The notes: generated by a model not told the origin, from the letters alone. A stretch of DNA of 64,000 nt from Candidatus Omnitrophota bacterium (GCA_041651455.1 JBAZJG010000005.1:3882-67881); one strand, 5' to 3'; positions 23,230 to 60,630 are shown, counted from the stretch's first letter. Translations and numbers: made by a program.

Positions 23230-23237
23230 CGCAAATC

Positions 23238-24160: not shown

Positions 24161-24181
24161 GGAAAGAAGGAGAAGAGATAA

Positions 24182-34454: not shown

Positions 34455-35668
34455 CGTTAGCCGCATTCGTCGCCGTTGCGGCGTTCCTGCCCGCGGAAGT
34501 CCTGGTCCGCGAAAGGGTCCTCAAGAAACCCGAGACGATCCAGAACATCGGCTTCACAAAAGGCACTACGGTGTATTTCGACGAATCCGGCAGGCTGCAA
34601 TTCGCGAGCCTCGGCGCCGACCAGCAGGTCGGGGGCATCAGGTTCGCTAAACGAACGTCCGTTTATTTCGACGGCTCCGGAAGGATCGATTATGTATACC
34701 TCGCCGCCGACCAGCAGGTGCTCGGGGTGGACGTAAGAAAGGGGACCTCGGTATATTTTACCAAGAACGGGAAGCTTGACTACATCATGGTCGCCGGTGA
34801 CGAAGAGATCGGCGGCCTTCTCTGTGCGAATGGCTCAAAGGCGGGTTTCTATGAGTCGGGAAAACTCCGGTATGCCACGCTCGGCAAGGACCAGCAGGTG
34901 CAGGGGATACCGTGCGCTAAGGGCTCAATAGCGGGTTTTTATGAATCGGGGAAACTGCGGCACGGGATATTATCAGATGACTCATGCGTGCAGGGCATAA
35001 TGTTCGCGAAAGGCACCTACCTTCTTTTTTATGAGACGGGCGGCATAAAGAGCGCATACCTCGTTGCGCCTACCGAAATAATGGGCATTACCTGCGCGAA
35101 CGGTCCGAGCGCGAGTTTTTATGAGAACGGTAAACTTGACTGGGCTGTCCTTGCGAACGTAAGCGAGGTCCAGGGGATATCATGCGCGAAGGGTTCGACG
35201 ATCGGGTTTTATAATACCGGAAAGCTCCAGTACGCTACGCTGTCTTACGAACAGGAAATCGACGGCATCGCATGCGCAAAAGGCGCGAAGGCCGGTTTTT
35301 ACCAGTCGGGTAAACTCCAGTTCACGACTCTTGCGGCAGACCAGCAGGTCTTCGGCATTCCTTGCGCAAAGGGCACGGTCGCCGGCCTGTATGAGAACGG
35401 CAAGCTGCAGTATGCGACCCTCAGCTCCGACAGGGAGATAAACAGCATACCCTGCGCGAAGGGAACGAAAGTTGATTTTTATGAGTCCGGAAGCCTGCAG
35501 AATGCTACGCTGTCCAAAGACCACAGGATAGGCAATATCGACTGTCCTAAAGGAGCAGTTGTCGGTATACGCGAATCCGGCACGCTTAAATACCTGATAT
35601 CCGAAGGGTCTAAGGCGAGTTTCGACGAGAACGGAAACCAGAGAGATATCGAAAAGACTGCAGATTGA
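34436..35668 (+). CDS. Exported tandem-repeat protein (12 x about 30 aa, MORN/YwqK-like beta-hairpin repeats)
   Basis: The TTG start lies 19 nt inside the cyclase gene, after an AAGGAAG RBS. The signal peptide is MRRTIIALAAFVAVAAFLPA. The repeat unit is G-I-x-C-A-K-G-x4-F-Y-E-S-G-K-L-x-Y-A-T-L-x3-Q-x-V. Confidence 0.75.
   Translation: MRRTIIALAAFVAVAAFLPAEVLVRERVLKKPETIQNIGFTKGTTVYFDESGRLQFASLGADQQVGGIRFAKRTSVYFDGSGRIDYVYLAADQQVLGVDVRKGTSVYFTKNGKLDYIMVAGDEEIGGLLCANGSKAGFYESGKLRYATLGKDQQVQGIPCAKGSIAGFYESGKLRHGILSDDSCVQGIMFAKGTYLLFYETGGIKSAYLVAPTEIMGITCANGPSASFYENGKLDWAVLANVSEVQGISCAKGSTIGFYNTGKLQYATLSYEQEIDGIACAKGAKAGFYQSGKLQFTTLAADQQVFGIPCAKGTVAGLYENGKLQYATLSSDREINSIPCAKGTKVDFYESGSLQNATLSKDHRIGNIDCPKGAVVGIRESGTLKYLISEGSKASFDENGNQRDIEKTAD
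34550..35629 (+). repeat. 12 diverged in-frame 90-nt tandem repeats within the CDS
   Basis: The protein-level period is 30 aa, for example GIPCAKGSIAGFYESGKLRHGILSDDSCVQ / GISCAKGSTIGFYNTGKLQYATLSYEQEID / GIPCAKGTVAGLYENGKLQYATLSSDREIN. The nucleotide copies are clearly diverged. Confidence 0.8.
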
Positions 35669-35705: not shown

Positions 35706-35734
35706 TTGACGACCTTCCGTACGCGTAATACAAT
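35706..35734 (+). promoter_or_regulatory. Sigma70-type promoter of the HTH / triple-TolC / GT48-like operon
   Basis: TTGACG (35706-35711), a 17-nt spacer, then TACAAT (35729-35734). A GGAGGAAGGAG RBS (35749-35759) precedes ATG 35767. Confidence 0.6.
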
Positions 35735-35766: not shown

Positions 35767-35961
35767 ATGGACATAGGCGCGAAATACATAACTATGGAAG
35801 AGGTCGTGAATTACTTAAGCCTTAGCGAGGGCAGTATCCGTAAACTTATACGGGAACAGAGTTTCCCGCACGTAAAGGTGCTCAGGAAATATCTGTTCAA
35901 TAAGCAGGATGTCGACGCGTGGCTTAAGATGCATTCACAGGGCCTAAGGGCAAATAAGTAG
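35767..35961 (+). CDS. Small helix-turn-helix DNA-binding protein (excisionase/MerR-superfamily HTH_17 type)
   Basis: The 64-aa product ..ITMEEVVNYLSLSEGSIRKLIREQSFPHVKVLRKYLFNKQDVDAWL.. matches the 'helix-turn-helix, excisionase family' pattern. It is the first gene of the operon. Confidence 0.7.
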   Translation: MDIGAKYITMEEVVNYLSLSEGSIRKLIREQSFPHVKVLRKYLFNKQDVDAWLKMHSQGLRANK

Positions 35962-35985: not shown

Positions 35986-38900
35986 ATGCTAAGCCAAAAT
36001 TGTAAGAAATATATTATATCATTATCCATCGCGCTCGCGATGTCGTTTCCGTCGATGTCGTGCCCCGGGGAATTAGATTACAATAAGCTTTCGCTTGAAG
36101 CCGCGCTGAACAGGATGTATGAAGTAGACCCCGAAATACAGATAAGCAGACTCGCATGCGATGCGTCCCTCCTCGAGATAAAAGCAAGGAAACTCGATAC
36201 ATTCATGCCGAAGCTCAGCGTCGGCGTCAGTATAGTCAAGCCGGTCGATATCTTCACGAAACTTGACCAGCAAAAAGAGATGTTCTTTGAACAGCAGGTT
36301 ATCATAGAATTCGCCGTGACCTCAAACAGCTTCAACCATATCCTTAAGGACAGGAAAGGGTACGAAGCTAGCATGCTCGAATTGAAGCAGGCGGTTTCCG
36401 AAAGGAGCCGTGAGCTCATCACCGTATATTACGCCGTCGCAAGGGCCCAGGAGAATTACAGGTCCAGCTGCGATAACATCGAGACAGTCGAGAAGGTCCT
36501 GAAGATGGTCGAAAACAGCAATGAATATACGGACGTCGAAAAACTCGAGATAAGGAACTATCTTGCCGTGGTCACGGAAGAGAAGTTAGGCGCGCTGAAT
36601 ACGCTCATCAATACGAGAAGAGACCTCCGCGGGCTTCTCGGTCTGGAGAACAGGGAAGATATCGATATAACCGTCGAGGAACTGCCTGATAATATCAACA
36701 ATGACATCGCCTTCTATGAAAACCCGTTGATAAGGCCGGCGGATTACACCCTCGACATATATAAGAAAAGGGGTGAGGCTGCGGACGTGGCCTCCCGGAT
36801 CAGCGCGTCTCCCTTATTGAAATTTTCTTCCGCGACGATCCTCGGCATCGCCGAGGGCAGGTTCACGAAACTCCAGAAGAAAGTGATAACTGATACGGGA
36901 GTGGAGTTGCATATAACCGACTTTGGCTATACCGGAGGCCTCAATGATGTAAGCAAGATTAATTCGCAGATAGCGAGGTTGGAGGTATTGAAAGCAGAAG
37001 AGGACCTTGAGTATTCGGATTTAATAGCGAACGGCAAACTGGCCGAACTAAGCGGCCTAATAGATAATTACAGGGAATACATAACGAAGACGGAAGACAT
37101 GTTGAGGATGTTCAGGGAACGCCTCTCCTTGCCGGTCATCGAGATAATAAGGATGAACGATAATCTCTATAAGGCCAAGTATGCGATGCAACAGGCGCTC
37201 GTCGATTATACGGTCATGCTCTCGAACCTTAAAGGTGTCGAGCTGAAACCCGAACAGACCAGCCCTCAATACCAGGATATGAGCTTGGAAGACCTGCTTG
37301 CGAGGGGCGAGAGGAGTGACATCCTGACCGTCAAACAGATATCCGAGAAGAAGATGAGGATGGAAAACGTCAGGATCAACGCGACAAAGGCCGGATATTT
37401 CCCGAAGATCACCGGTGCGGCCATACTTGAGAACGCGAACATAGACGGCGTGCCGTCGCAGGCTACGAGGGCTTACGTTGCGCTTGAAGGGCAGCTCTTT
37501 AACTTCAAGAACGGGCAGGCCATCAGGGCAGCGAAGGCCAGCATGGAAGAAATCAGGTACGAGGGCGCCGCGCTGCAGAACGTGGTCGCGGATGAGATAA
37601 TAAAGAACTACCTGTTCATATTAAGGAGCAAGAATACCTTAAAATGGCTGAACGAGATCAAGGGGATAAAAGACGACATAATACGCGATATGCTGGAAAA
37701 TATGGAAGGCAAGGGCCCCAAATATAGTAATTCGGATATACTGCCGCTGGTCCTGCAGCAGATGGAGCTGGACAGGATGATGGCGGATGCCGAGTTCTCG
37801 CTGGCGGTCGTCGAGTATAGCCTCAAGAAATGGACCGGCATACCGCTCAACGAGACGATAAGCGTAAAGGAGCTCCCGGCGTTCGGGGAGGACGAAGGGC
37901 TCTCAGGGTTCATGGCGCTGATCCGGTCCAAGGTGGCGCCGTATTTCGACGGTAAGGCGCCGGTAAAACAAGCCCTGAGCGCCGTCGAAAAGAACAGGGC
38001 GGAAGAGGCGCGGGCCGTCGCGTATGATGGGGCGCTGCTCCAGGTAAAATGCGAGACGAAGGGCATGGAATATAAGGGATGGCATGATCCCGACAGGCAG
38101 GTGTCTTTCAGCGTCTCCGTGCCGTGGGGCGACCGCAGGGAAAAGATAGCCAGGTCTGAGGCGGCGAGGACCCGCATCAAGTCGGAGATCGAGTATTTGA
38201 AGAGCATGGATGCTTATGAAAAAGAGAGGTTATCCGTCAAGACCTCCTACGATTCATCGAAAGCGCTCCTTGAAGACCTGCGCAGCAAGAAGGAGAATAT
38301 GGAATCGCAGTACAGGATAACCGAGGAACTTTACCGGTTCGGCGGCCGGACAAAGAAGCAGATGGTTGATTCCAAGCTGGATTTCATAGTAGCGCAGATG
38401 AGCTATGAGGAAGCCGTCCTTGACAACTATTACCACAATGCGAGGGAGCTGCTGGTAGTGGAGAAAGATGCGGAACCCGAAGGCAGCGAAAGGATATTGC
38501 TGGCCGGATTGCAGGAAGCGATAGACCTTGCCATGCAGAACAGCCGCGAAATAAGGAAATACGAGGAGAGCCTCAAGCTCGAGAAGGAAACATTGGATTA
38601 TTACAAGACGGTGAGGATAAAGGGCGATATCGGAGGGGATTCCTATATAATAGATAACAAGGGCTGGAATGAGACAAAGAGGGTCAAGACCGCGGGGATC
38701 GTCGCGACCGCCGACATTGACCTCGTGAACAAATATATGGTGAAAGTCCAGCAGCGCAGGATCGAGCTTGCCGAAAAGGACCTCGAGCAGGCGAAGTTCG
38801 ACCTGACCCTGAAGGTCGCGGATGCCTACTCGGGCTACCTCGGTTCGCTCGCGGAGACCTCGGAAGTCCGCAAGGAATACGAGAGGCAGAAGACGGTCCT

Positions 38901-39795
38901 GGCGGAAATGGAAGAGCTTTTCAAGGCGAAAGCGATAGCGCATGTGGACCTGCTGAAGCAGAGGGAGTTCGTAGAGAGCCTTCTGCAGAAGTACATCGAC
39001 ACCAACAGGTATACCGAAGGGCACAGGAACAGCCTCGGCATTGCCGTCGGAGGCCTCGACCCGAGGTTTTCGGTCGTGAACACCGAGGTTTACGACAAGT
39101 CCGCCCGGCGCGTCGCGCTTACGGAAGATTTCGAGATCAAGCAGAGGCTGTTGGACGAGCTTACATCCGCGAGGCAGGCGCTCCAGGGACTGCTGCAGGA
39201 TGATCTGCTCAAGCGCGCGGAGATCAAACTCGACATGGCCAGGCTTGATACCCAAGCTATATCAAAACAGGTAAAGACGCTCGCGGTCAACCTCGAGTAC
39301 ATATACCTTACGGATTTCATGGGACTAATAATGAGGGATGAAGCCGCCTTCTCGCGTTATGACAACATGTCGGAGTTTTTCTCGCTGAACTCCATAGACC
39401 AGATATTCAATCCCGCCACCGGGACTAAGGCGAGGATTGCGGCGATAAGCGAGAAGGTCGCGGCATTAAGGTCGAAGTCATATACGAAAAACGTTGTCCA
39501 GGACGCGTTGAGGAGGTTTACCGATTACCAGGTGGCCGTGGCCGATTACGCCAACTACGAGAAGAACGAAACGGTGCTGGAAAACGAGATGGCCGAGAAG
39601 ATGCGTATGGAAGAGGCGGCAGGGAACACGGCCCTGATCAGGCAGAGGGAGCTAAAAGAGACGATACTTAACAACAAGATAAAGAAGATACAGGCATTCT
39701 ACAGGATGATGAAATTTATGAACGAACTGGACCGTTATCTGATAAGATATACTTCAAAAGGCATAGAATCATACGTAACATTCGTCACAAAATGA
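35986..39795 (+). CDS. Giant TolC-family outer-membrane factor with about six OEP-type repeats (three TolC-protomer equivalents in one polypeptide)
   Basis: The 1269-aa product has an N-terminal signal-like segment (..LSIALAMSFPSMSC). TolC-style module starts occur at aa ~35 (LSLEAALNRMYEVDPEIQ), aa 432 (MSLEDLLARGERSDILTVKQ) and aa 838 (LLAGLQEAIDLAMQNSREIR). Each is followed by long heptad-rich helical hairpins and short Gly/aromatic beta segments. Confidence 0.65.
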   Translation: MLSQNCKKYIISLSIALAMSFPSMSCPGELDYNKLSLEAALNRMYEVDPEIQISRLACDASLLEIKARKLDTFMPKLSVGVSIVKPVDIFTKLDQQKEMFFEQQVIIEFAVTSNSFNHILKDRKGYEASMLELKQAVSERSRELITVYYAVARAQENYRSSCDNIETVEKVLKMVENSNEYTDVEKLEIRNYLAVVTEEKLGALNTLINTRRDLRGLLGLENREDIDITVEELPDNINNDIAFYENPLIRPADYTLDIYKKRGEAADVASRISASPLLKFSSATILGIAEGRFTKLQKKVITDTGVELHITDFGYTGGLNDVSKINSQIARLEVLKAEEDLEYSDLIANGKLAELSGLIDNYREYITKTEDMLRMFRERLSLPVIEIIRMNDNLYKAKYAMQQALVDYTVMLSNLKGVELKPEQTSPQYQDMSLEDLLARGERSDILTVKQISEKKMRMENVRINATKAGYFPKITGAAILENANIDGVPSQATRAYVALEGQLFNFKNGQAIRAAKASMEEIRYEGAALQNVVADEIIKNYLFILRSKNTLKWLNEIKGIKDDIIRDMLENMEGKGPKYSNSDILPLVLQQMELDRMMADAEFSLAVVEYSLKKWTGIPLNETISVKELPAFGEDEGLSGFMALIRSKVAPYFDGKAPVKQALSAVEKNRAEEARAVAYDGALLQVKCETKGMEYKGWHDPDRQVSFSVSVPWGDRREKIARSEAARTRIKSEIEYLKSMDAYEKERLSVKTSYDSSKALLEDLRSKKENMESQYRITEELYRFGGRTKKQMVDSKLDFIVAQMSYEEAVLDNYYHNARELLVVEKDAEPEGSERILLAGLQEAIDLAMQNSREIRKYEESLKLEKETLDYYKTVRIKGDIGGDSYIIDNKGWNETKRVKTAGIVATADIDLVNKYMVKVQQRRIELAEKDLEQAKFDLTLKVADAYSGYLGSLAETSEVRKEYERQKTVLAEMEELFKAKAIAHVDLLKQREFVESLLQKYIDTNRYTEGHRNSLGIAVGGLDPRFSVVNTEVYDKSARRVALTEDFEIKQRLLDELTSARQALQGLLQDDLLKRAEIKLDMARLDTQAISKQVKTLAVNLEYIYLTDFMGLIMRDEAAFSRYDNMSEFFSLNSIDQIFNPATGTKARIAAISEKVAALRSKSYTKNVVQDALRRFTDYQVAVADYANYEKNETVLENEMAEKMRMEEAAGNTALIRQRELKETILNNKIKKIQAFYRMMKFMNELDRYLIRYTSKGIESYVTFVTK

Positions 39796-42700
39796 GCGGG
39801 AATATGTCAAAGAGCGGCAAAAAAATAGCCATAGTGCTGGTAGCGGTCGCGGCCATCTTCATCACGGCGCGCTCGTGTATGCACCGTTCCGCGGATGTAC
39901 GGGACGCGGCCGGCACACAGCAACCGATCGCAGCCGGTGCCGCGCGTACAGATAACCCGCTCGACCATGCGCGGCAGCGCGATTCGGCTTTAAATGCCGG
40001 AGAATTGATATCCTTCATATTGGAATGGACCAACCCGGAGACCGGGCTGGTGCCTACAATCATATCAAAGAGCGGGCAAAAGAACCCTTTTGCCGACCTG
40101 TCTTATACGTACGCGCAGGCGGTTGCGCACCAGAACCTCATAATTGCGGGATCAAACGACAGGTCGCAGGCCGCCGCGGAGATATTCAGGCAGAGGGGAG
40201 AGACGAGGGATATACCTAACTGCTTCAACGTCCGGACCGGGTTTAGCGAGGACCCTTTGGTAACTGCCGGGCCAAACGCGTACTGGGGCATAAGTTTCAT
40301 AAGGGAATACAAGGCAACCGGCGACGAAAAGTGGCTTACGGCAGCAAAGAGGCGCGCAGATTTCCTGCTAAAACTGCAGACGGATGACGGCGGGATAAGA
40401 AAGAACCCCTTCCAGGGCAACGCGGAATATAAAGCCAAGTCGACAGAGGAGAACCTCGATTGCTATGCGCTGTTCGTGATGCTTTCCGATATCACAAAGG
40501 AGAATAAGTATGCGGTTGCCGCGTCCGATGTGCTCAAATGGCTTGCGGAAAGCGGTGTATATGACATAGAAGCGGGTTATTTTATCGCAGGCACATCGGA
40601 TGATCAGATGAACCCGTTGTATGCAACAGACGCGAACGCGCTCGCTATCATAATACTCGGCCCTGAGCTGCTCGATTCAGAAGGCAAGGTCCGGTTCGGC
40701 GGGGCCGGCACAAGCCGCAGGATCCTGGACAGCCTTGATGCGGCCAAGGTCAAAGTAGATTATCTCCATCCGTCCGGCGTCACGATAAAAGACCTAGAAG
40801 GATTCGATTTTACCGACAAATTCGGCAGGCCAGGCAGGAAACCAGTCCTGAGCCCCGAGTTCACTTCCCAGGCGGTGCTGGCATATCTGGTAATGGCAAG
40901 GCACGCGAAAGAGAAAGGAGATGCCGAGTATTCGGCCAAGCTGATCGAAGACGCGCGGCGTTATCTCGATAACCTAGGGAGGATGGCAGCGCGCACAGGG
41001 AAGTCGGCGTCACTGCCTTATGCCTCGGAGAAAGGGATTAGGCGTTATCCGTTCGACAACTGGCTGACGCCGCAGGGAGATGCGGATATATCGGCGACAT
41101 GGGCGTCATTCCCATTATCGGGATTCAATCCGTTCGCGCTTGAAGGGTTAGGGCTGCGTGATGCGCTGAAGGACTCCGCGGAATGGATGTCCGATACGGG
41201 TGAGGTCATAAAGCCCGAAAAAGCTTTCGTTATCCCCGAACCGGAGAAGATCATATCCGAAGCAGAGCTCATTGCCCAGCAGGAAGCGGCAAGGGAAGAG
41301 GCGATGAGGAAGCCGATCGTGTATTATAAGGTCCTTTACGACCAGGTCAATAAGGATGCGACTATTGCGAGAAGGAGAGTGATAGCCGTCCTGATGACAA
41401 GCTACAATTGCTGGTTCGACGGCGTGCTGGATACGGCGTCGCGGGACTATGACGTGATCGGCGTTGACGGGAATTATAAGGTTTTCTACAAAAGATTCCA
41501 GGACCTTCCGGAAGCGACAAGGAAAGCCGTGCAATCGGAATATGCCTATTTTGACGAGCCAACCGGCATAAAATGGAGGATGGCCCCGAAATACAATTTG
41601 TATCTAGACGGGCAGTATAAGCCGTATTATGCCTTCGAGATAGACGGCGATTACAACATAATCAGGCAGTTTGCGTCCGAGAGCGACATCCCTGAAGAGA
41701 ACAGGGCCGATCTCAAGAGCGCAAAAGCCCAATTCCAGTCCTCCCGCGGCCTTCCCGAGGGCCATCTTATAGCAAGGTATTTCACCGCGCTCGAAGTGGA
41801 CGACGAGATGAATATAACGAACTATTACGAAGCGATAGATGACCTTCCCGGCCTTGTCTCTAAAGTCCCGATAAGCGAGGATGAGTTCAGGAGGTATATA
41901 AAGGCGAAGGACTGGGAGAGGCTGGACCTGGTCTCTGCTGGCATCATACCTGATGAAAAAGGGATGCTTGCCGTACAGGAGAGAGGTATGTATTACGCAA
42001 GGGTCCTCGGCCTCGATGAGACGAGGAGGCTGCGTGTCGGTGGTGTCTCCGTAGCCAGCGGACGCGAGATAATCATGGGAACGAGGTTCAGTCTTACTAA
42101 CTGGCGCATAGGAGAGGCATCGAAAACTAACGCCGTCAAATACGAGATCGGGCTCATAAAAGGCATGGTCATAAAGCCGCGTGAACAGTTTACCGGAAGC
42201 GGCCCTTCACCGACGCAGCCGCTTTGGATATACCTCGGGGAAGATATGATCGCGTCCGAGACCGCGGAATTCAAGAGAAGGCTCATGAGCTTGTTGAAGC
42301 GCATCAAATCAGAGAAGGATGCGCAGACACGCCTCGAGCTCGTGGAACAATACGACCGGTTGGCCGGAGAGCTCGCCTGGTACGACGAGAACGGGTTCAT
42401 ACATGTTATCTATTATGGTGTAAAAGCTGCCGAAAAGAGGTTCGGGGATTTTGCGTCGGCAAAGGCAAGAGCGGAGAACAGCCTGAGGACCTACGAATCG
42501 ATCCTGGGTAAGGACCAACTCGGGCGGGACCTGCGCGATTCATACGGCCGCGTATGGCTAAAGGTCATAAACGAGGCGACCGGACGCATATTATACGTCG
42601 AGGTCTATGATATGGCGGGAAATCTCGAGACGATATATTCCGGGAAAATCGATATCGACCCGCTAACTAAGGAGGTCAGGTCCGAAATAAGGACCGATCT

Positions 42701-45700
42701 CGAGTACGACAAGGAGACCCTGCAGGTAGTCGGCAGCCACACATACCGCACGGACGAGAACGGGGATTGGGTGTCCGATATATCCGAGAGCATATTCAAA
42801 GGGTATACGCCCGACAAGAAGTATTTCGTTTCGGAGGTGCATATATTCGATAGGGACGAGGACGGCAGGATAATATTCGAGGACGGGAAAGCCAGGTATA
42901 CAAAGAAGATAGAATATTACACGCCTGAAGGCGATATATCGGCCCAGATGGTGAAGAATATAATTACTATAGTCAAGTACGGCGCCAACCATGAGGTCGT
43001 GAAAGAGGTATTTCTCGAGCGGCCCGGAAAGGTCCTGACAGGGGAGAACACGAACCTCGATAACCTGACGCAGGGCCTTGCGTGGGTCCGCAGGTACAAG
43101 ACGACAGGCAAGATCTTGACTTTCAAGGATTCGCTCGTGAAGTCCCTGACATCGCTGCCGGAAGAAGAAAGGGAAACGGCCGCGCTGCTGATATTGAACA
43201 GGCTCGGCGCGGAGAAGGTGGGCAGGATCAGCGATATCCTTATGCTGGAAGAGAACGAGGTCACGAACAACCTGACCGGCGACCCTGCCGCGGCCGGGGA
43301 GGCGCCCTATTTTGTGTTCTATGAACCGGGCGACAGTTTAGGCCGGCAAAGGCTCATAGTGCGCGGCGGTACGATGGAGGTCCCCGTTGACTGGATAGCC
43401 GAGGCCGATATACCTTCGAAGACGCTCACCTTCAACCTTGCCGGTGAATTGGTCTCGATAAGCGATGTCGACAGCTCTGTCCGCGCGGATTCCGTACTGC
43501 CTCCCGGATATATAGAAAGGATGGCGCCGCTCGGTATCAACGCCGATACGCTGCTGCCCCAGATGAAGAAGAGGATATTCAGGATGGTGACCGGCGAGGA
43601 CGGCCTGCCGCATTTCACGAATACGGTGGCCATAACGACGGTCAGCTACATGATACCCGACGACGTTCTCGGCAGGGAGCTCTTGAATGTCAAGTTTGTC
43701 ATGCTCGGGGACGAGACGACGCTCCACAGCGGCAGCGCGCTGAAGCTCAAGCGAAATATATTCGGCAGGGACACGCTTATCGAGTCGTGGAAGGACGAAA
43801 GGGGCGAGGCCCGCACCCGTGCTATAGCCAAGAAAGAGGATACCGTAGTATATGAATGGTATAAGGAAGGCCTCGGCACCGGCGAGCTGCGAGAGCGCCT
43901 GAAGTCCGAATGCGGCAAGATCGTGAAACGCAAGATACTGGAAGAGGCGCTTGAGAACGTCGCGGAGGCGCCGTTCGGCACAATGCCCGGCTATCACGTC
44001 ATAAAGCCGAACGGGCGTATAGGCGAGATCAAATATTTCTCCGGCACAGTCGAATATCCGCGCAGCGTCTTCAGTCATCCCGGGGTAAAGGTGCCTTATG
44101 AGACGGAAGCGCCGCCGTTCAAGCTTCCGGACGGTCCCCTGATAAGGGGAGTGAAATACGGCGTGTTGAATTCCGATTACGCGTTCTATGACGTGCATTC
44201 GCTCAGCGGCCAGCTGATAGTCCTCGAACGCCGTTTCATAATCCTGCGCCTCATGAACATACTGCCGGTGCAGGGCGGCAGGCAGACTGAATATTATGAC
44301 CCGCTCGTCCCGTATTCATACCTGAGGCCGATAAAGATAGAAAGGGATTTCAGGCCCGGCACACAACCCGAGGGCACGCAGCCGGGCACCCAGATCGTTG
44401 CGGTCTTTATCGGCGATGCGAGCATCTACCACCGTAACGGATGGCAGACCCAGACTTTCCTCGAGAGGAGGCCGTTCGATATAGAGCACTGGATACGCTC
44501 TGATTACGAGTTCGACGATAACGGCGTATATAAGTTCAAGAAAGAGCATATCGAAAGCAGTTCGATATACCTGATGAGGTCTATAAAATGGCAGAAGCCG
44601 CTAGCTTTCTTCGCGTTTGTGGCAGGCCTCTTCTTCCTGGCCGGGTATGTCTCGCGCAGCAGGCTTAAGGCAGGTAAGAGGTCCAGGATGGCTGTCGCGC
44701 GTGCGGCATCGCGGCCGTTCAGCAGGGAAGTGCTTGCGCGGCTCTCGGTACCTGAAGAGCTGAAAGCCGCCTGTATAAGGGTTTATGAAGGACATGAGCC
44801 GGTATCGGAACTCTTCGCCGCATCCGAAAAGGTCTTCAGGCCCAGGATCGAGGAATGCCTTCGCGGTTTCGGGGCCGACCCTGCCGGACATACGGCAAGC
44901 GTAAATGTCCTGCTGGACAGGATCGCGTGCCGGATCGGAAGGGAGGATATAAATTTAAGCAACCTGTTCGCAGTTGAAGCGAAAGAGTTCGGGGAATGGT
45001 CTAAGAAGAACGGGCATTCCGTCAACATTGCCGCAGGCAGGCCCGGCAGGGACGACCTGTCGGTGATAGTCCTCTTCAGGCTGGTATTCGACGAATCGAT
45101 GGAATTCAGGGCCGCCGTCACCGGGTTCAGGAATTACCTGCTCGATAAGTCGCTCGGGCTCCTTGACGAAGGCAGGAAAGGCGATATATTGCGCGAGATA
45201 CGCGGCGATACTCTCGCTTTCCTCGAGGCCTTAAGGCCTGGTTATGACAGGAAGCTCGGGCTCACTAAGGAATATATATTCACGTATGATGACATGAGCG
45301 AGCTCTTTGAAGGAAAGAGGCCAGGTTTCATCGCCTCATTCTCCCAGCTGGCAGGAAAGACCGCCGAGCAAAAACTCTCCTGGCTCGCGTCAAGGGCGGG
45401 CAAGGATGCCGCCGCGGACGTGAAGTCATACAAGAGCTACATATGGCTCAAGACGTTCCCTGATAAGGCCGGCGTTCCGCAGTTCGTCTGGAACCTTAGG
45501 CGCTTCTGGGAATTTCTCGTGCCGATGTTCGCGGCAGTGACTCTGGGCGGCGTAGCGATAGCCCTGAAACGGATACCGTTCGCCCAACGCCTCTCCGGTG
45601 CGATGGGCCCGATAGGAGCCACCTTTGTCGAGGTAACGGCCCTGATATTTATCGGCCTCATCATAACTATGGCCTTCAAGAGGCGGACACTCGGCGATTA

Positions 45701-48700
45701 CAGGCCCGCGCTGAGGGATGCGGCCGGGAGCAAGGAGCTCAGGCGCTCGATCAGGCTGTTCTGGATAATGTTCGGCTCGGCTTCTTATCTCTGGGGCCTC
45801 TTCAGCATATTCGTGATAATCTGGACCGTCAGGATCATAAGCAAACTCACGTTCGTGAGCGCCGGATGGGGCCTGTTCATCAACGTGAGCGCGCTGCTGC
45901 TCACCTTCACGTTCATACTGTCGAGCTTCTTCTCGCTCTTTTATATCATAATAGCGTTGATAGGGTTTTACCGCGGCAAGAGGGAAGGCATCGGCCAGGT
46001 CATATCATGGGCCCAGATGAGGAGGAAGTTCGAGGCATCCAGGCGGTGCTTCGGGCAGATCATCACTCCGTCCGAAGCGTTTTGGAAATCATATTGGAAT
46101 TCCATGATAACGGAACTCTACGATTATTATGTCATCAGTGCCGCGGAGAGGGATGGGCTGGTTTATTCGGAAAAGAACGCGGTGCCGAAGCTATCCTCAC
46201 AGCCGCGTGCCGAAGAGGCCTCCGAAAGGATGCGCCTGTACGTAAACAGCTGGCTTATGGAGATGCCGAAGGCATGCTCCTGGAACGACCTGCCGACCTT
46301 CACGGCAATGGTAACGGCTTTCAATGAGCCGGTAAGCTTCTCGTTCGACGAGCTGAACGGCTGCGACAGGGGGGCCGAGGTCACGAGGCTTAACCACCTG
46401 ATCGGGTTCTATAGGCCGCAGTGGGAAGAATTTGTCGGCAGGCTAAATTCCGCCGACCTCGGGCATTATATCACGAGGGAACAGCTAAAGCTGCTCTTCG
46501 GCCTGAAGAAGCTGCCCGAAGGGCTCCCTGAACAACTGAAGGAAAAGATCAGGAAGTGGGCAAACCTGACGGTCCAGTGCGTCGAGAAGACGGCCGTGGA
46601 GGTATACAGGATACGCGACGCTTTCGCGGCATACGCACGGGCCTGCTATCCCGGAATCTCCGAGAAGGCGGTATCGGAGATGGTCTCTGATAAGGTCCAG
46701 ATACTGCTGAATTACGAGGGCTACCACAGCGCCGCGACCCGCGATTCCGACAAGGAGGCCCTGAGGAGGATCATGAAGGAGCTCCCGTTCCTTGACGTAT
46801 ACTGGGCGGCGCCGGAAGGCGACGAGAAGGGAACGGACCGCGGGCTCCACCGCTATAACCCGTCGACAGACAGCATAGAGCTTATAGAGACCGCGCCGTT
46901 CACCTCCACGGTCAAGAAAGGCAAGCCGAGCGGGCTGAACCAGGCGCTGCCGTTCGTGAAGGGCGAGACGGTCCTTTTCTTCGACGCGAACTGCTCGGTC
47001 AGGATAGAGGACGCCCTGAAACTGCCCGTCGCGCTTTCCGAGTTCGCGGACGACCCGTCGCTCGGCGAAGTCCTGTTCGCGGAATACATATTCAACAAGA
47101 ACTACTCCTGGATCTCCCAGGCGATAGGTTTCAACGAGGAGACCTTCGTTTCGGTGACCCAGAGGACGCTTAACATCTTCCAGGCCTGCGGTTTCTACGG
47201 CCACAGCGCGATAATAAAGACAGACATGATAACCGCGGCCTGCGGCCTGCCGCAGGATTACATATCGGAGGACATACTCCTTGCCACGGCATTATGGAAA
47301 AAGGGCCTGAGGACCTCGCACAAAGAATACCTGACCTTCGGGAAGGGCAGGGAGACCTCGTATTTCACGAGCCTCGTGCCGCTGACGAAGTGGGCGATGG
47401 GTTCTTCCGACGCCGCGATAGGCCGCGTCATGCGCGGCATACTCGATTCGAGGAATGTCCATGTCGCGCAGAAGTTCATGCTGATGTTCGGGTTCTCGTT
47501 CTTCTACCAGACCCCGCTGATGTTCGTGATAAACTTCCTTTACCTGTGGCTGATGATCTGCTGGGGCATAAACGGTTTCATGGCGGTCCCGTACCCGATA
47601 GTCTTCGGTATCCTCGGCCTGCTCTTCAACCAGGCGATAACCGCTACCGGCGTCGCGTACCTCGTGGAACATTACGGTTTCAGGAAGTCCTTCTCCGCAT
47701 ACATGAAGCTTGTCGCGAAGAACCATTTCTTTTACGCGTCGGTCATACCCGCGTACGCGTTCGGTTTCCTCGCAGGCCTGAAGGGAAAGGCAGTCTTTAT
47801 CATAAGCCCGAAGGGATGGAACCTGGGCCACCTGCCCCTCAAGACGATATGGGGGGAGAAGAGGGCCATACTGAAGGCGGCGCTCTTCAGCACCATGGTA
47901 GGCCTTCCGCTCGCATACCTGTTCGTGTCGACCGAGACGGTCCCGTTATGGATAAGCCCGTTCATACCGTTCCTGCCGTTCGCCGTAGTTGCGGCTATGT
48001 ACTTGGCCGGCCTCAGGTGGAAAGAGACGGGATTGGGTTTCCTGAAGGATTGGCGCGACGAGATAGTCCCCGACGGCGACATCCGCAAGATGTCCGTCAT
48101 AAAGCTGCAGATGATATACGCGATGGTCTTGCTTGTCTTCACGGGAGTCGGCTTCGTCATGTGGGGCCTTATATTCTCATCCCTGGCGGTCAAGGCGCTG
48201 TTCATATTCTCGGTCCTTTACATAAGCACGACGCTGTCGTTCATAATAATGCCGCTCTTTGCGCATTCGCAGCCGGTCGCGCTGTTCAAGGAGATAACGA
48301 TATCCAAGTTCTGGAATTACGCGGTGATACCGATGCTGCTGGCGAGCATTGTTCTCGGCGCGGTCTCTATAATGTCGAGCCCCGCGACGGCATCGCCCGA
48401 ATCCGTCGTCTATACGCTTCTCGGCATATCGATGCTTGTCGGATGGGCGCTGCTTAAGTGGAAGCTCAGCGGGTATGCGAGGCTTGACAGGTGGCTCAGG
48501 CAGAACCTGGCCGGATACGCATCCTCTTCGCCGGTACGCAAAGCCGACCTCATGGATGACATATACTTCGCTCACCAGGAGTTGATCCAGAGCGACAGGC
48601 AGGAGGAGCTTAAATACAGCAGGAAGGCCGGGAAGGCCAAAGCCGTGTTCGTGTTCACGCTGTCGGCCGCGTTGCTGATGTATTTCACGTCGGAATTCTA

Positions 48701-49019
48701 CCCGAGGTTCTTCAGCAACTGGATATGGATCGTTATCGCGATCGAGGCGGTCTACCTGCTGATATTGAACGTCGAGCATACTAAGGGCGACAGGATATAC
48801 CTGGGCAAGTTATTCAGCGAAATAATGATTAATGATTTCAACAGGCTCAATGAGAATGTCAGGGCCATGGAAGACATCTGGAAGAAACTGGACAGGATAT
48901 ACAAGGCCAAGCTTATCAGGACCTATGAGGACGAAGTCAGGGCCAAGAGGGCGATGACCGTTTACATGTCCAGGTGCATAAGGTCGTGGGAGGCGGGACA
49001 GCAGCAGAAGCCTACTTAG
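39792..49019 (+). CDS. 3075-aa envelope-spanning protein. Order: N-terminal TM anchor, ~1570-aa periplasmic region (alpha/alpha-toroid-like plus beta-rich), TM, cytoplasmic linker, TM cluster, FKS1/callose-synthase-like (GT48-like) glucan synthase core, ~10-TM C-terminal cluster
   Basis: ATGA overlap with the TolC-like gene, then one uninterrupted ORF. The GT48-type blocks are EEASERMRLYVNSW..MP..LPTFTAMV, YRPQWEEFV, IRKWANLTVQ, GKPSGLNQALPFVKGETVLFFDAN, EDALKLPVALSEF, AEYIF, FYGHSA, SEDILLA and EYLTFGKGRE. Hydrophobic clusters lie at 45.5-46.0 kb and 47.5-48.8 kb. Confidence 0.75.
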   Translation: MSGNMSKSGKKIAIVLVAVAAIFITARSCMHRSADVRDAAGTQQPIAAGAARTDNPLDHARQRDSALNAGELISFILEWTNPETGLVPTIISKSGQKNPFADLSYTYAQAVAHQNLIIAGSNDRSQAAAEIFRQRGETRDIPNCFNVRTGFSEDPLVTAGPNAYWGISFIREYKATGDEKWLTAAKRRADFLLKLQTDDGGIRKNPFQGNAEYKAKSTEENLDCYALFVMLSDITKENKYAVAASDVLKWLAESGVYDIEAGYFIAGTSDDQMNPLYATDANALAIIILGPELLDSEGKVRFGGAGTSRRILDSLDAAKVKVDYLHPSGVTIKDLEGFDFTDKFGRPGRKPVLSPEFTSQAVLAYLVMARHAKEKGDAEYSAKLIEDARRYLDNLGRMAARTGKSASLPYASEKGIRRYPFDNWLTPQGDADISATWASFPLSGFNPFALEGLGLRDALKDSAEWMSDTGEVIKPEKAFVIPEPEKIISEAELIAQQEAAREEAMRKPIVYYKVLYDQVNKDATIARRRVIAVLMTSYNCWFDGVLDTASRDYDVIGVDGNYKVFYKRFQDLPEATRKAVQSEYAYFDEPTGIKWRMAPKYNLYLDGQYKPYYAFEIDGDYNIIRQFASESDIPEENRADLKSAKAQFQSSRGLPEGHLIARYFTALEVDDEMNITNYYEAIDDLPGLVSKVPISEDEFRRYIKAKDWERLDLVSAGIIPDEKGMLAVQERGMYYARVLGLDETRRLRVGGVSVASGREIIMGTRFSLTNWRIGEASKTNAVKYEIGLIKGMVIKPREQFTGSGPSPTQPLWIYLGEDMIASETAEFKRRLMSLLKRIKSEKDAQTRLELVEQYDRLAGELAWYDENGFIHVIYYGVKAAEKRFGDFASAKARAENSLRTYESILGKDQLGRDLRDSYGRVWLKVINEATGRILYVEVYDMAGNLETIYSGKIDIDPLTKEVRSEIRTDLEYDKETLQVVGSHTYRTDENGDWVSDISESIFKGYTPDKKYFVSEVHIFDRDEDGRIIFEDGKARYTKKIEYYTPEGDISAQMVKNIITIVKYGANHEVVKEVFLERPGKVLTGENTNLDNLTQGLAWVRRYKTTGKILTFKDSLVKSLTSLPEEERETAALLILNRLGAEKVGRISDILMLEENEVTNNLTGDPAAAGEAPYFVFYEPGDSLGRQRLIVRGGTMEVPVDWIAEADIPSKTLTFNLAGELVSISDVDSSVRADSVLPPGYIERMAPLGINADTLLPQMKKRIFRMVTGEDGLPHFTNTVAITTVSYMIPDDVLGRELLNVKFVMLGDETTLHSGSALKLKRNIFGRDTLIESWKDERGEARTRAIAKKEDTVVYEWYKEGLGTGELRERLKSECGKIVKRKILEEALENVAEAPFGTMPGYHVIKPNGRIGEIKYFSGTVEYPRSVFSHPGVKVPYETEAPPFKLPDGPLIRGVKYGVLNSDYAFYDVHSLSGQLIVLERRFIILRLMNILPVQGGRQTEYYDPLVPYSYLRPIKIERDFRPGTQPEGTQPGTQIVAVFIGDASIYHRNGWQTQTFLERRPFDIEHWIRSDYEFDDNGVYKFKKEHIESSSIYLMRSIKWQKPLAFFAFVAGLFFLAGYVSRSRLKAGKRSRMAVARAASRPFSREVLARLSVPEELKAACIRVYEGHEPVSELFAASEKVFRPRIEECLRGFGADPAGHTASVNVLLDRIACRIGREDINLSNLFAVEAKEFGEWSKKNGHSVNIAAGRPGRDDLSVIVLFRLVFDESMEFRAAVTGFRNYLLDKSLGLLDEGRKGDILREIRGDTLAFLEALRPGYDRKLGLTKEYIFTYDDMSELFEGKRPGFIASFSQLAGKTAEQKLSWLASRAGKDAAADVKSYKSYIWLKTFPDKAGVPQFVWNLRRFWEFLVPMFAAVTLGGVAIALKRIPFAQRLSGAMGPIGATFVEVTALIFIGLIITMAFKRRTLGDYRPALRDAAGSKELRRSIRLFWIMFGSASYLWGLFSIFVIIWTVRIISKLTFVSAGWGLFINVSALLLTFTFILSSFFSLFYIIIALIGFYRGKREGIGQVISWAQMRRKFEASRRCFGQIITPSEAFWKSYWNSMITELYDYYVISAAERDGLVYSEKNAVPKLSSQPRAEEASERMRLYVNSWLMEMPKACSWNDLPTFTAMVTAFNEPVSFSFDELNGCDRGAEVTRLNHLIGFYRPQWEEFVGRLNSADLGHYITREQLKLLFGLKKLPEGLPEQLKEKIRKWANLTVQCVEKTAVEVYRIRDAFAAYARACYPGISEKAVSEMVSDKVQILLNYEGYHSAATRDSDKEALRRIMKELPFLDVYWAAPEGDEKGTDRGLHRYNPSTDSIELIETAPFTSTVKKGKPSGLNQALPFVKGETVLFFDANCSVRIEDALKLPVALSEFADDPSLGEVLFAEYIFNKNYSWISQAIGFNEETFVSVTQRTLNIFQACGFYGHSAIIKTDMITAACGLPQDYISEDILLATALWKKGLRTSHKEYLTFGKGRETSYFTSLVPLTKWAMGSSDAAIGRVMRGILDSRNVHVAQKFMLMFGFSFFYQTPLMFVINFLYLWLMICWGINGFMAVPYPIVFGILGLLFNQAITATGVAYLVEHYGFRKSFSAYMKLVAKNHFFYASVIPAYAFGFLAGLKGKAVFIISPKGWNLGHLPLKTIWGEKRAILKAALFSTMVGLPLAYLFVSTETVPLWISPFIPFLPFAVVAAMYLAGLRWKETGLGFLKDWRDEIVPDGDIRKMSVIKLQMIYAMVLLVFTGVGFVMWGLIFSSLAVKALFIFSVLYISTTLSFIIMPLFAHSQPVALFKEITISKFWNYAVIPMLLASIVLGAVSIMSSPATASPESVVYTLLGISMLVGWALLKWKLSGYARLDRWLRQNLAGYASSSPVRKADLMDDIYFAHQELIQSDRQEELKYSRKAGKAKAVFVFTLSAALLMYFTSEFYPRFFSNWIWIVIAIEAVYLLILNVEHTKGDRIYLGKLFSEIMINDFNRLNENVRAMEDIWKKLDRIYKAKLIRTYEDEVRAKRAMTVYMSRCIRSWEAGQQQKPT

Positions 49020-50391
49020 TATTGTAGCTTTCTTTCAAAACCTCGTGGTAGTAGAGCCAATCGTCGCTAACCTTCTTCATCGCGCTGTAGAGGTTCCTGT
49101 AATCGTCGTAGATATCGCATTCGAACTCGATATTACGCCTTCCGCTCAGGAAATGCGCGAAGAGCTTGTAGTTCATCTCCTTGCGCAGGAAGTTCTTCTT
49201 CTTGAGGGCATAGAAGAGCGATCCGCTGCCTTCGAAGCAGTTCATTATCCTTACCCATTCGCAGGCGATGAATATGCAGTTCTTGTAGCTTCCGAACAGG
49301 TCGACCGTGTCGCAGTCGATGAATACGCATGATTCGAGCTTGCTCGACGGTTTTATCTTCTTGCTCCTGACGAAATAGTTGCCGTTCTCGTCCGGTTTGG
49401 ATATCTGCGCGGTCAGCTTGCGCAGCAATTCGAGATATGTCATTATGTTTGACGCCCAGTCGATCCAGTAGCCCCTGGCGATGGCGCCGCCGACGCTTAT
49501 CTCGTATTGCTGAAGGCATTCCCTCATTGCGAGCTGTATCTTCGATAGCGCCTTCTTCTCCAGGACGAGCGACTCGCAGACCAGCTTGTTGAAGCTCCAT
49601 TCGGTCGCGTTCAGGTGCGCGATGAAGTCCTTGTTCTTCTCCTTGGAGCAGAAGAGGTCGACCGCGTTCTGCAGCTTATCCAGGCTGTCTTTTGTGGTGA
49701 ATAGCTGGAACGTATTCGCGAGCGTCATACCCTTTGTATATTTAGGTATCAATTTTTCGTCGAAGGTCTTTTCGTAAAAAGAGGATATGCCGTTATTAGA
49801 GTCGAGCTTAGCCGTGCCGAGGCTCCCGAGGGCCCTGTTTATCTGTATCGGGGTCAGCAGCATGGAAGCCGTATGCGAGTTAAGCGATCTCAGCAGGCCG
49901 TTTATGTCCACATCGGCGTAATCGAAACACTGGTCGATCGGAAGTATGATAACCGTGTTCTTCAAAAGCGGGATGCTCTTGGCGATGCACGGAAGAAGCA
50001 TGTCCGGCGCCCGGCCTTCGGGGAACCTTATGCTCGCCTTTGACGGCGTGCCGAATTCATAAGAGAGGGGGAATATCCTCGTGGCGAGGCCGGCGTCATG
50101 GATATATACAATAGTATCGAAGGAATCAAGCTTCTTCTTGGAAAGGAGCCTCTTTATACGCTCGTGGGTCTTGAGGTAACCGGTAAGGTTACCGCGGGTC
50201 TGGCCCATCTCGGCCATCCCGACAAGCTCGACGTCTATCGTCTTGTTATACCGCTCCCTGAGCTTCTTCTTGAAGAGCTGTTTGAGGTCGAGAGAGAACT
50301 CAAGCTTATCATAAGAGTTCAGTACGAGCAGTACCCTGTCCGCGACCTCATTTTTTACTTTTAGGTTCTCCAGTACGGTAGTCTTAGCCAT
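49012..50391 (-). CDS. Hypothetical cytoplasmic protein; weak motif-level resemblance to nucleotide-sugar pyrophosphorylase-type folds
   Basis: The 459-aa ORF has clean coding character, is Lys/Asn/Phe-rich and has no TM segment. The motif VYIHDAGLATRIFPLSYEFGTPSKASIRFP loosely recalls the G-x-x-(S/T)-R-x-x-P-(L)-(S/T)...K loop of NDP-sugar pyrophosphorylases and fucokinase-N-type domains. Its 3' end overlaps the giant gene by 8 bp. Confidence 0.6.
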   Translation of the reverse strand: MAKTTVLENLKVKNEVADRVLLVLNSYDKLEFSLDLKQLFKKKLRERYNKTIDVELVGMAEMGQTRGNLTGYLKTHERIKRLLSKKKLDSFDTIVYIHDAGLATRIFPLSYEFGTPSKASIRFPEGRAPDMLLPCIAKSIPLLKNTVIILPIDQCFDYADVDINGLLRSLNSHTASMLLTPIQINRALGSLGTAKLDSNNGISSFYEKTFDEKLIPKYTKGMTLANTFQLFTTKDSLDKLQNAVDLFCSKEKNKDFIAHLNATEWSFNKLVCESLVLEKKALSKIQLAMRECLQQYEISVGGAIARGYWIDWASNIMTYLELLRKLTAQISKPDENGNYFVRSKKIKPSSKLESCVFIDCDTVDLFGSYKNCIFIACEWVRIMNCFEGSGSLFYALKKKNFLRKEMNYKLFAHFLSGRRNIEFECDIYDDYRNLYSAMKKVSDDWLYYHEVLKESYNTK

Positions 50392-58942: not shown

Positions 58943-59019
58943 GGGCCCATAGCTCAGTTGGTTAGAGCAGCTGACTCATAATCAGCGGGTCATAGGTTCA
59001 AGTCCTATTGGGCCCACCA
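58943..59019 (+). tRNA. tRNA with anticodon CAU, elongator type (Met or lysidine-modified Ile2), CCA encoded
   Basis: The cloverleaf reads GGGCCCA / TAGCTCAGTTGGTTAGAGC / GCTGA-CTCATAA-TCAGC / GGTC / ATAGG-TTCAAGT-CCTAT / TGGGCCC-A-CCA. G1:C72 is paired, so it is not an initiator. The acceptor pairs C4:G69 and C5:G68 resemble E. coli tRNA-Ile2. A candidate promoter TTGCTA-17-TATCAT lies at 58902-58930. Confidence 0.9.
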
Positions 59020-59027
59020 AATTTTTC

Positions 59028-59104
59028 GGGCGATTGGCTCAGTTGGTTAGAGCGCCACATTCACATTGTGGAGGTCAAAGGTTCGAATCCTTTATCGCCC
59101 ACCA
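59028..59104 (+). tRNA. tRNA-Val (anticodon CAC), CCA encoded
   Basis: The cloverleaf reads GGGCGAT / TGGCTCAGTTGGTTAGAGC / CCACA-TTCACAT-TGTGG / AGGTC / AAAGG-TTCGAAT-CCTTT / ATCGCCC-A-CCA. It starts 8 nt after the previous tRNA. Confidence 0.9.
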
Positions 59105-60610: not shown

Positions 60611-60630
60611 ATAATTTTCAGGAGAAGGAA

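Follow-up and report, generated by a model that had tools for sequence, protein, structure and literature searches.

In fungi, GT48 glycosyltransferases build the cell wall and are inhibited by the antifungals ibrexafungerp and the echinocandins; members of the family also produce callose in plants and storage glucans in algae. The family is treated as a eukaryotic invention, and its origin is unexplained. A 64,000-nucleotide (nt) stretch of DNA from Candidatus Omnitrophota bacterium (GCA_041651455.1 JBAZJG010000005.1:3882-67881; here called the window, with positions counted from its first letter) raises the question of whether a bacterium can carry such an enzyme. An earlier reading of the sequence by a model (the original prediction) had recognised a β-glucan synthase core of the Fks1/callose synthase type, with the Fks1 layout, at 45510-48780. 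This interval falls within a single open reading frame (ORF) on the plus strand (39792-49019), which encodes a giant fusion protein of 3075 amino acids (aa) composed of a periplasmic module and a GT48-type synthase, and it accounts for the C-terminal 38% of that protein. We find that the C-terminal half is almost certainly homologous to GT48, as had been predicted, and we consider it likely to be the catalytic and channel half of a bacterial synthase of the GT48 lineage, serving a synthase-dependent, probably cyclic di-GMP (c-di-GMP)-linked β-glucan export system.

GT48 homology across the Fks1 architecture

The C-terminal 1175 aa of the protein were compared with Pfam and the PDB. PF02364 (Glucan_synthase) was matched significantly over aa 2139-2587 (profile positions 4-496 of 819; E 2.4e-24), its score of 86.1 bits exceeding the curated cut-off of 37.2 by 49 bits, whereas the GT2 model Glyco_trans_2_3 stayed just below its own cut-off of 27 (26.7 bits, E 5.8e-6). 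When 177,635 PDB sequences were searched with phmmer, only Fks1 and Fks2/Gsc2 were matched (E ~1e-8; query 237-316 aligned to Fks1 809-889, and query 476-645 to Fks1 1080-1273), and no GT2 synthase was among the PDB matches at E up to 1. No NCBIfam model matched the 3075-aa protein. The peptide blocks quoted in the original prediction are all found in the translation of 39792-49019; the Fks1 blocks that it set beside them agree with the true Fks1 sequence in the PDB alignment. RIWASLRSQTLYRT is the one exception: it falls beyond the segments aligned there, and it was compared solely with the consensus RxWASxRxQTLxRT of the eukaryotic alignment.

Homology to eukaryotic GT48 covers the entire architecture of Fks1, beyond the GT-A core. 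The profile of the bacterial family, compared by hhalign with an alignment of 14 eukaryotic GT48 representatives, gave a probability of 100% and an E of 1.7e-51 over 991 columns, spanning the N-terminal cytosolic domain, the first transmembrane (TM) bundle and the GT domain and extending as far as template column 1249 of 1632, inside the second TM cluster. The alignment begins at the cytosolic N-domain of the synthase (aa 1622-1906, 285 aa; 44655-45509), within which VLFRxVFxES..CPSFRYFLF of the family is paired with eukaryotic LWLLIWGEAANLR..PExLCFLF, and TxEDxExLF with YDDxNExFW. This segment is 35-86% identical to the matching region in relatives; searched alone it has no Pfam match, and the FKS1_dom1 model gives no hit. 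Judged from the profile alignment, the N-domain is homologous to the N-terminal cytosolic (FKS1_dom1/accessory) region of Fks1.

The topology of the whole protein, including the coordinates of the TM clusters, was read from a hydropathy scan. The N-domain is followed, all on the plus strand, by a first TM bundle (aa 1907-2059; 45510-45968; four long helices in the structural model described below), a cytosolic GT-A catalytic domain of GT48 type (aa 2060-2560, ~500 aa; 45969-47471; also delimited by PF02364 and the Fks1 alignment), a second TM cluster of 10-12 helices (aa 2561-2992; 47472-48767; also seen in the model and in the hhalign and Foldseek alignments), and a C-terminal cytosolic helical tail (aa 2993-3075; 48768-49016), the helices of which have a predicted local distance difference test (pLDDT) score of ~87-93. 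The original prediction had bracketed the core with TM clusters at 45.5-46.0 and 47.5-48.8 kb, and these boundaries hold. No Pfam match, and no PilZ domain, was found in the tail by Pfam scan. Together, the two TM bundles presumably form the glucan channel. All of the sequence- and architecture-based hallmarks of GT48 that we tested are present: in both sequence and structure the protein lies nearer GT48 than the GT2 synthases, and it has the architecture of Fks1, from the cytosolic domain at the N-terminus through TM helices and a GT domain in the cytosol to the large TM cluster at the C-terminus.

According to Zhao et al. (PMC10499315), mutation of any of 15 Fks1 residues abolishes function, and we scored each of these positions (E851, D1080, K1082, D1102/N1104, E1155, K1172/E1173, H1195, N1220/E1221, D1222, K1246/R1248 and K1261) in the window protein. 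Twelve of the 15 are identical (Fks1 numbering, then window numbering: E851, E2179; K1082, K2378; D1102, D2398; N1104, N2400; E1155, E2431; E1173, E2449; H1195, H2471; E1221, E2493; D1222, D2494; K1246, K2518; R1248, R2520; K1261, K2533), and three are substituted (K for D1080, N for K1172 and S for N1220), with S at the N1220 position being the commonest state in the eukaryote-like set of relatives (27/38). The DAN motif, which is metal-independent and sets Fks1 apart from the DxD of GT2 synthases (PMC12715860), is found in the window protein as D2398-A-N2400 (nt 46983-46991, +), along with the ED pair (E2493-D2494; nt 47268-47273, +), both placed by the Fks1 alignment, and the KGR motif (K2518-G-R2520). 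Nine positions (K2378, D2398, N2400, E2431, H2471, E2493, D2494, K2518 and R2520) are conserved 12/12 in the window's clade; when 35 diverse sequences were aligned, the only columns without any variation were those corresponding to K1082, D1102, the YGH glycine and D1222. The acidic and basic residues that the original prediction wanted checked are kept in a proper alignment to Fks1. By this alignment, the residues required for Fks1 activity are conserved in the window protein, which is very probably a catalytically active polymerase.

An AlphaFold (AF2) model built from a 7-sequence alignment had a pLDDT of 51; with 28 distant representatives added, for a total of 35 sequences, the model reached a pLDDT of 82.8 and a predicted template-modelling score (pTM) of 0.82, with the GT domain mostly >90. 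In a Foldseek comparison with the PDB, which the original prediction had proposed, ranks 1-13 were all Fks1/Fks2 chains (E 2.2e-21 to 3.6e-13; alignments of ~1350 columns, TM-score 0.37-0.49 normalised to the query), ahead of BcsA (2e-10) and then hyaluronan, cellulose and chitin synthases.

Set against Fks1/Fks2 and callose synthase as references (CAZy GT48, PF02364; PDB 7XE4, 7YUY, 8JZN and 9WZU), the window protein is built in the same order, from a cytosolic N-domain through a TM bundle and a GT-A domain to a multi-TM region at the C-terminus; with Fks1, its best match both by sequence and by Foldseek, it also shares the active-site equivalents of K1082, DAN, E1155, E1173, H1195, ED, KGR and K1261. 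It differs from Fks1 in having four helices before the GT domain in its model, as against six, and from both Fks1 and callose synthase in being bacterial with ~27% core identity, in carrying an N-terminal 1600-aa periplasmic module, and in belonging to an operon with an outer-membrane protein. Fks1 has a Rho1-type regulator, which is impossible in the window system, where a diguanylate cyclase is linked instead.

A bacterial locus and its conserved gene cluster

The synthase gene is bacterial and intact. The window also carries genes for acyl-CoA dehydrogenase, ETF, dnaG, rpoD and CvpA, a bacterial RNase P RNA gene (class A; 60279-60612) and tRNA-Met and tRNA-Val genes (58943-59104), and its GC content is even (0.50-0.59). 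When GTDB was scanned with each species represented by one genome, 14 loci of this subfamily came up; the nearest loci (91%) come from a Candidatus Omnitrophota metagenome-assembled genome (MAG) and a MAG labelled uncultured Planctomycetia, and the other loci bear the labels Omnitrophota, uncultured Planctomycetia, unclassified ‘bacterium’, Auribacterota, UBP3 and Spirochaetes. Loci L021 and L022 have the order of the window (acyl-CoA dehydrogenase, ETF, GGDEF, p410, HTH, OEP, synthase, p459, CvpA, NIF3, DnaG, RpoD). The original prediction had seen the synthase as embedded among bacterial genes and had named a chimera with eukaryotic DNA as a danger; synteny runs across both junctions in independent MAGs, and no chimera is left to suspect.

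Linkage within the cluster was assessed by local tblastn of the window proteins against all fetched loci and their called genes. Six components stay linked as the gene order changes, namely the cyclase, the repeat protein, the OEP protein, the periplasmic module, the synthase and a 459-aa protein (OEP, periplasmic module, synthase, GGDEF, p410 and p459, which recur at 27-52% identity in rearranged loci), and the loci that carry the cluster are labelled Omnitrophota, Auribacterota and UBP3, along with a Spirochaetes-labelled MAG.

Directly upstream of the synthase gene lies the gene for a TolC-like OEP outer-membrane protein of 1269 aa (35986-39795, +), which matches PF02321 in five stretches (8.8e-23, 81.5 bits, cut-off 22) and has a signal-like N-terminus. 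Its stop codon overlaps the synthase start (ATGA), it adjoins the synthase gene in all loci with sufficient flank (27-88% identity), and its product ranges from 1269 to 1352 aa across loci. OEP matches fall in five of the six sixths of the protein, pointing to about six repeats; an internal three-fold repeat was not significant when the thirds were compared by hhalign (E 0.02-0.12). This composition suggests a single-chain, pseudo-trimeric outer-membrane duct holding three TolC protomers' worth of sequence. The protein resembles TolC/OEP (PF02321) in its significant OEP matches along the chain, and differs in having ~six repeats in one chain where TolC has two per protomer in a trimer, and in partnering a glycan synthase where TolC partners an ABC, RND or MFS pump.

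The periplasmic module that precedes the synthase in the fusion protein begins with an N-terminal signal-anchor TM helix (aa 12-30; 39825-39881), continues as a periplasmic domain of ~1570 aa between two TM helices (aa 31-1602; 39882-44597), and ends in a TM anchor (aa 1603-1621; 44598-44654), all on the plus strand and placed by hydropathy. It is evenly conserved (60-78% column identity in 7 diverse sequences) and contains an (alpha/alpha)6-like segment (aa ~162-271; nt 40275-40604, +) marked by a partial GH76 match (1.5e-9, profile positions 89-206 of 366) and a match to Aman6 (E 6e-4 across 87 residues). D197-D198, which we take to correspond to the catalytic Asp pair of GH76, reads DN, AD, PD, ND or ID in relatives. 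With the profile matched in part and the Asp pair not conserved, we rejected GH76 membership, and we propose by analogy that the module may act as a BcsB-like guide or as a processing module.

Fused genes of 3038-3136 aa also occur in L005, L011, L014, L019, L021 and in P0161-P0171; in L005, L011 and L014, an OEP gene is followed, as in the window, by a fused gene of 3038-3121 aa. In L001/L002 the fusion is split into genes of 1661 and 1447 aa, and in these loci and in L013 the periplasmic module is encoded as a separate gene; in L001/L002 the separate periplasmic protein closes with a C-terminal TM anchor, the counterpart of the aa 1603-1621 helix, with a short tail behind it in L001, and it thus stands to the synthase as BcsB does to BcsA. 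A 3071-aa protein at NCBI (P0161), 100% identical across the C-terminal query, is labelled ‘glycoside hydrolase family 76 protein [Candidatus Omnitrophota bacterium]’. In the ENA contig L003 (6447-15965), the fused gene is called as two products of 2513 and 631 aa with the break inside the GT domain, which is probably a frameshift or an assembly error and not a natural split.

Upstream of the operon, a sensor diguanylate cyclase gene (32877-34454, +) encodes two TM helices, a periplasmic dCache_1 domain, HAMP and GGDEF (Pfam E 7e-17, 5e-10 and 1e-42, respectively), with the active site GGEEL and a RESD I-site five residues upstream of it. This gene is upstream in the window's clade, including L021/L022, and directly downstream of the synthase gene in L003, L012 and L019/L020 (44-49% identity). 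The secreted 410-aa repeat protein (p410; 34436-35668, +) is MORN_2-like (6.6e-9), has an N-terminal hydrophobic signal and consists nearly entirely of tandem ~29-aa repeats (G..FYESGKL.YATL); its gene moves with the GGDEF gene, standing behind it in L019/L020 (36% identity) and in L012. Ahead of the operon, TTGACG, 17 nt and TACAAT (35706-35734, +) make up a site that is promoter-like by its consensus match (10/12). The first operon gene in the window's subclade is an ORF for a 64-aa HTH_17 (excisionase/MerR-like) protein (35767-35961, +), named from the PF12728 match of the L021 orthologue and present, among the loci compared, only in the close relatives L005-L011, L016, L021 and L022.

The 459-aa soluble protein (p459; 49012-50391, minus strand) appears, from profile matches of its family, to be a very divergent GlgC-like sugar-1-phosphate nucleotidyltransferase. 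It is ~52% identical across phylum labels, and in L019 its gene is upstream on the plus strand. Five of six family members match TIGR02091 glgC (best 8.7e-5) and four of six match PF00483 NTP_transferase (best 1e-3), and in a PDB search p459 aligned weakly, and colinearly, with E. coli GlgC (5l6s); matches to gp41 helices in the same search were set aside as spurious. The family has an invariant motif, HDAGLATRxFPL, which we take to resemble the nucleotidyltransferase signature GGxGTRLxPLT. By these profiles the relationship of p459 to GlgC is one of distant superfamily similarity only, and we propose that p459 may supply the NDP-glucose donor.

L019, the most divergent fused locus, also has genes for a GT2 enzyme, for phosphoglucomutase and for a PilZ-domain protein of 444 aa within 7 kb (1-1039 and 22214-26686), the separate PilZ protein being 6 kb away; in that lineage the system could possibly include these as extra components.

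Proposed β-glucan export and competing explanations

We propose that the cytosolic GT domain would take NDP-glucose, possibly made locally by the GlgC-like p459, and would polymerise it into β-glucan in a processive, metal-free manner (DAN in the place of DxD, an ED pair in the finger helix, and KGR). The chain would be threaded through the synthase's own TM channel, like that of Fks1 and BcsA, taken over on the periplasmic side by the 1570-aa module, which a TM helix anchors beside the synthase, and released from the cell via the co-translated, ~six-repeat TolC-like outer-membrane protein, while the dCache-HAMP-GGDEF cyclase would tie output to an external signal through c-di-GMP. The predicted inner-membrane processive GT with its own translocation channel is a feature shared with the synthase-dependent exopolysaccharide systems of the Bcs, Alg and Pga type. 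These parts are not equally secure. A glucose polymer is a fairly likely product, to which the GlgC-like p459, the phosphoglucomutase of L019 and a GH72 match in the relative P0021 give hints. A β-1,3 linkage specifically is plausible but slightly the less favoured answer; it is suggested by analogy because all characterised GT48 enzymes make β-1,3-glucan (PMC12715860, PMC3797821), the active site is conserved and a relative is GH72-like. Trans-envelope export through the OEP protein is rather more probable than that linkage, and c-di-GMP control, to which the gene linkage points, we regard as evenly balanced.

A close functional parallel is the BcsA-BcsB-BcsC cellulose system (GT2; PDB 4P00, 4HG6), which likewise has a periplasmic partner C-terminally TM-anchored beside the synthase, a dedicated outer-membrane component and an association with c-di-GMP signalling. 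It differs in that BcsA is a GT2 enzyme with DxD, QxxRW and PilZ, whereas the window synthase is GT48-like with DAN and without QxxRW or PilZ. The window's periplasmic module is N-terminal and unrelated by sequence to BcsB, and its outer-membrane component is TolC-like where BcsC combines tetratricopeptide repeats (TPR) with a 16-strand barrel. In AcsAB-type cellulose synthases, the periplasmic partner is fused to the synthase, as it is in the window protein. In place of the TPR/β-barrel porin of Bcs, Alg and Pga systems (BcsC, AlgE/K, PgaA), the window has the OEP/TolC-like protein, and neither a TPR nor a porin gene turned up among the cluster's genes; in place of their PilZ or I-site receptor on the synthase or co-polymerase, it has a GGDEF gene as a neighbour only. 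The curdlan synthase CrdS (GT2) would make the same kind of polymer if our linkage assignment holds, but belongs to another GT family, and no search returned a CrdS sequence match. CrdS is without the Fks1-type N-domain and C-terminal TM cluster.

Several points weigh against this reading. Core identity to Fks1 and to the closest eukaryotic sequences is only ~27%, and the PF02364 score of the window protein (86 bits, as against 205-323 for other Omnitrophota proteins) marks it as a divergent member. To our knowledge, GT48 function is known only from eukaryotes and from no bacterial member, and linkage is unreadable from sequence; similar GT2 folds make β-1,4, β-1,3 and mixed-linkage glucans. 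We know of no precedent for a TolC-like duct in synthase-dependent polysaccharide export, in which the known systems use β-barrels of the BcsC, AlgE or PgaA type. The p459 family is below curated cut-offs throughout (window copy 13.5 bits versus 424.9), the GH72 match in P0021 overlaps an equally strong GH2_C match and may reflect generic clan GH-A similarity, the Pfam scan found neither PilZ nor any other known c-di-GMP receptor on the synthase, and a c-di-GMP riboswitch was not found.

These points must be set beside what the competing explanations can account for. An ordinary GT2 synthase of the cellulose or curdlan type, resembling GT48 through a shared ‘cellulose-synthase-like’ fold, would explain the weak Glyco_trans_2_3 match (26.7 bits, E 5.8e-6), the name ‘glycosyltransferase family 2 protein’ that PGAP, the NCBI annotation pipeline, gives to several relatives, and the fact that the Fks1 fold is itself BcsA-like (PMC10499315, PMC12715860). 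We consider it highly unlikely: the GT2 match is under its cut-off while PF02364 is 49 bits over, the PDB sequence search is free of GT2 synthases at E up to 1, the 991-column alignment takes in the GT48-specific N-terminal domain and TM helices, DAN replaces the GT2 DxD and KGR is present, and in a Foldseek library that holds both families the 13 Fks chains come 11 orders of magnitude before BcsA. That eukaryotic DNA was mis-assembled or mis-binned into a bacterial contig might be suspected from the derivation of the window from a metagenome assembly and from GT48 having been described so far only in eukaryotes, but the chance of this is negligible given that the gene and its bacterial flanks recur in independent NCBI, JGI, ENA and Logan assemblies (58-91% identity), that the 9.2-kb ORF is uninterrupted and overlaps the OEP gene at ATGA, that GC content is even, that the synthase is fused to a domain of bacterial-type periplasmic topology, and that core identity to the nearest eukaryotic sequences is just ~27%.

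A different possibility accepts the GT48 relationship and keeps the polymer in the periplasm or envelope, for instance as a wall-like layer or as a glucan that is cyclic or osmoregulated. The (alpha/alpha)6-containing module would then work as a cyclase or transglycosylase, and the OEP protein would have some other role. Cyclic β-1,2-glucan synthase pairs a GT with (alpha/alpha)6 domains, and this precedent, the huge and evenly conserved module with its (alpha/alpha)6-like segment, the Cgs chains among the weaker fold matches (rank 50 and rank 24 in two comparisons) and the glucanosyltransferase-like domain of P0021 all speak for retention. It is nonetheless unlikely, as the OEP gene is translationally coupled and found in every locus with sufficient flank, the GH76-type Asp pair is not conserved, and no other sign of cyclisation was seen. 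Finally, the synthase could be a degenerate, non-catalytic scaffold within a giant envelope protein, given that many Omnitrophota giant proteins are domain mosaics (10.64898/2026.06.07.730766) and that the window protein, at 86 bits, is divergent; with catalytic and substrate-binding residues invariant in its clade (12/12 at nine positions), the GT domain modelled at pLDDT >90 and a putative donor-supplying enzyme linked to it, such a pseudo-enzyme is very unlikely, and export of a β-glucan remains the reading that we prefer.

Wider family and the origin of GT48

An exhaustive hidden Markov model (HMM) search of 1.84 billion cluster representatives matched 667 at E <=1e-3, 407 at <=1e-10 and 106 at <=1e-30; a word-index search returned 7-19 close relatives only, far fewer. 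Many of the family proteins are giant (2,000-7,900 aa). The named bacterial matches are all Omnitrophota, save one Elusimicrobiota and one labelled only ‘bacterium’, and their names are either hypothetical or those of an unrelated fused domain (LysM, NUDIX, CMP kinase, FAD oxidoreductase); bona fide eukaryotic GT48 enzymes appear from about rank 80. Several Omnitrophota proteins (among them MDP8213471.1 from Ca. Zapsychrus exili) reach PF02364 scores of 205-323 bits, on a par with divergent protist enzymes (142-280 bits). Omnitrophota-type proteins with strong PF02364 matches include P0019, P0021, P0037, P0046 and P0083 (e.g. RKY39097.1 and MBU4311710.1). A GT48-like domain is also present in P0104 (MCG3204206.1; 7525 aa) from an Elusimicrobiota MAG and therefore extends past Omnitrophota and their neighbours. 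RKY39097.1, MBU4311710.1, MDP8213471.1 and MCG3204206.1 share the catalytic domain family of the window protein; these other Omnitrophota and Elusimicrobiota domains differ in belonging to other clades and in lying within multidomain proteins of 2,000-7,900 aa.

We placed these sequences in a crude, bootstrapped, unrooted neighbour-joining (NJ) tree of 448 GT-core columns, with the eukaryote-like set defined by tree position and Fks1 similarity and a minority of either set taxon-named. The split of the eukaryote-like set plus the Fks-like Omnitrophota clades from the window's clade plus the other bacterial clades had 99% bootstrap, and the eukaryote-like set was recovered as a group in 43% of replicates; the mean pairwise distance was 2.15 outside this set versus 1.45 inside. 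A firm direction of transfer between bacteria and eukaryotes was rejected, as the NJ tree cannot be rooted. On the strength of the complete Fks1 architecture and of the deep, divergent bacterial clades, some of which group with the eukaryote-like set, we put forward as a possible but doubtful proposal that the eukaryotic β-1,3-glucan synthases (Fks, callose and protist laminarin/paramylon enzymes) descend from a bacterial envelope-polysaccharide synthase of the kind that Omnitrophota and related uncultured phyla still carry. Were this so, the window would show a possible ancestral context, that of trans-envelope, second-messenger-linked glucan export with a TolC-like duct.

A literature search that lay outside most subscription journals brought up no paper in which bacteria or Omnitrophota are connected with GT48, PF02364, Fks1 or callose synthase, and a 2026 preprint on Omnitrophota giant proteins (10.64898/2026.06.07.730766) makes no mention of the GT48-like family. 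The sequences are public, and PF02364 is precomputed on all close relatives; what is new is the recognition and the interpretation. PGAP names P0004, P0161, P0165, P0171 and the window protein ‘GH76’ or ‘GT2’ family proteins, and these names are unsupported, the dominant domain being of GT48 type. A bacterial lineage with the full Fks1 architecture would make the origin of GT48 testable by rooted phylogeny, and smaller prokaryotic proteins could serve the study of GT48 catalysis and glucan translocation. The system would be a third glycosyltransferase route to bacterial β-glucan, beside the GT2 cellulose and curdlan enzymes. It points to polysaccharide export by newly combined parts, in which a GT48 synthase is joined by a TolC-like duct and a giant module in the periplasm. 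The system would also offer a functional lead for some of the unexplained Omnitrophota giant proteins and correct the misleading ‘GH76’ and ‘GT2’ names.

P0021, a GT48-like protein of 2315 aa which groups with Omnitrophota, has an N-terminal match to Glyco_hydro_72, the family of fungal-type β-1,3-glucanosyltransferases (aa 231-434; 34.9 bits versus a cut-off of 25.9). In L018 (CAZFPS010000001.1, 1-22904), the entire 22.9 kb is a single uninterrupted frame of >7634 codons that contains a GT48-like core.

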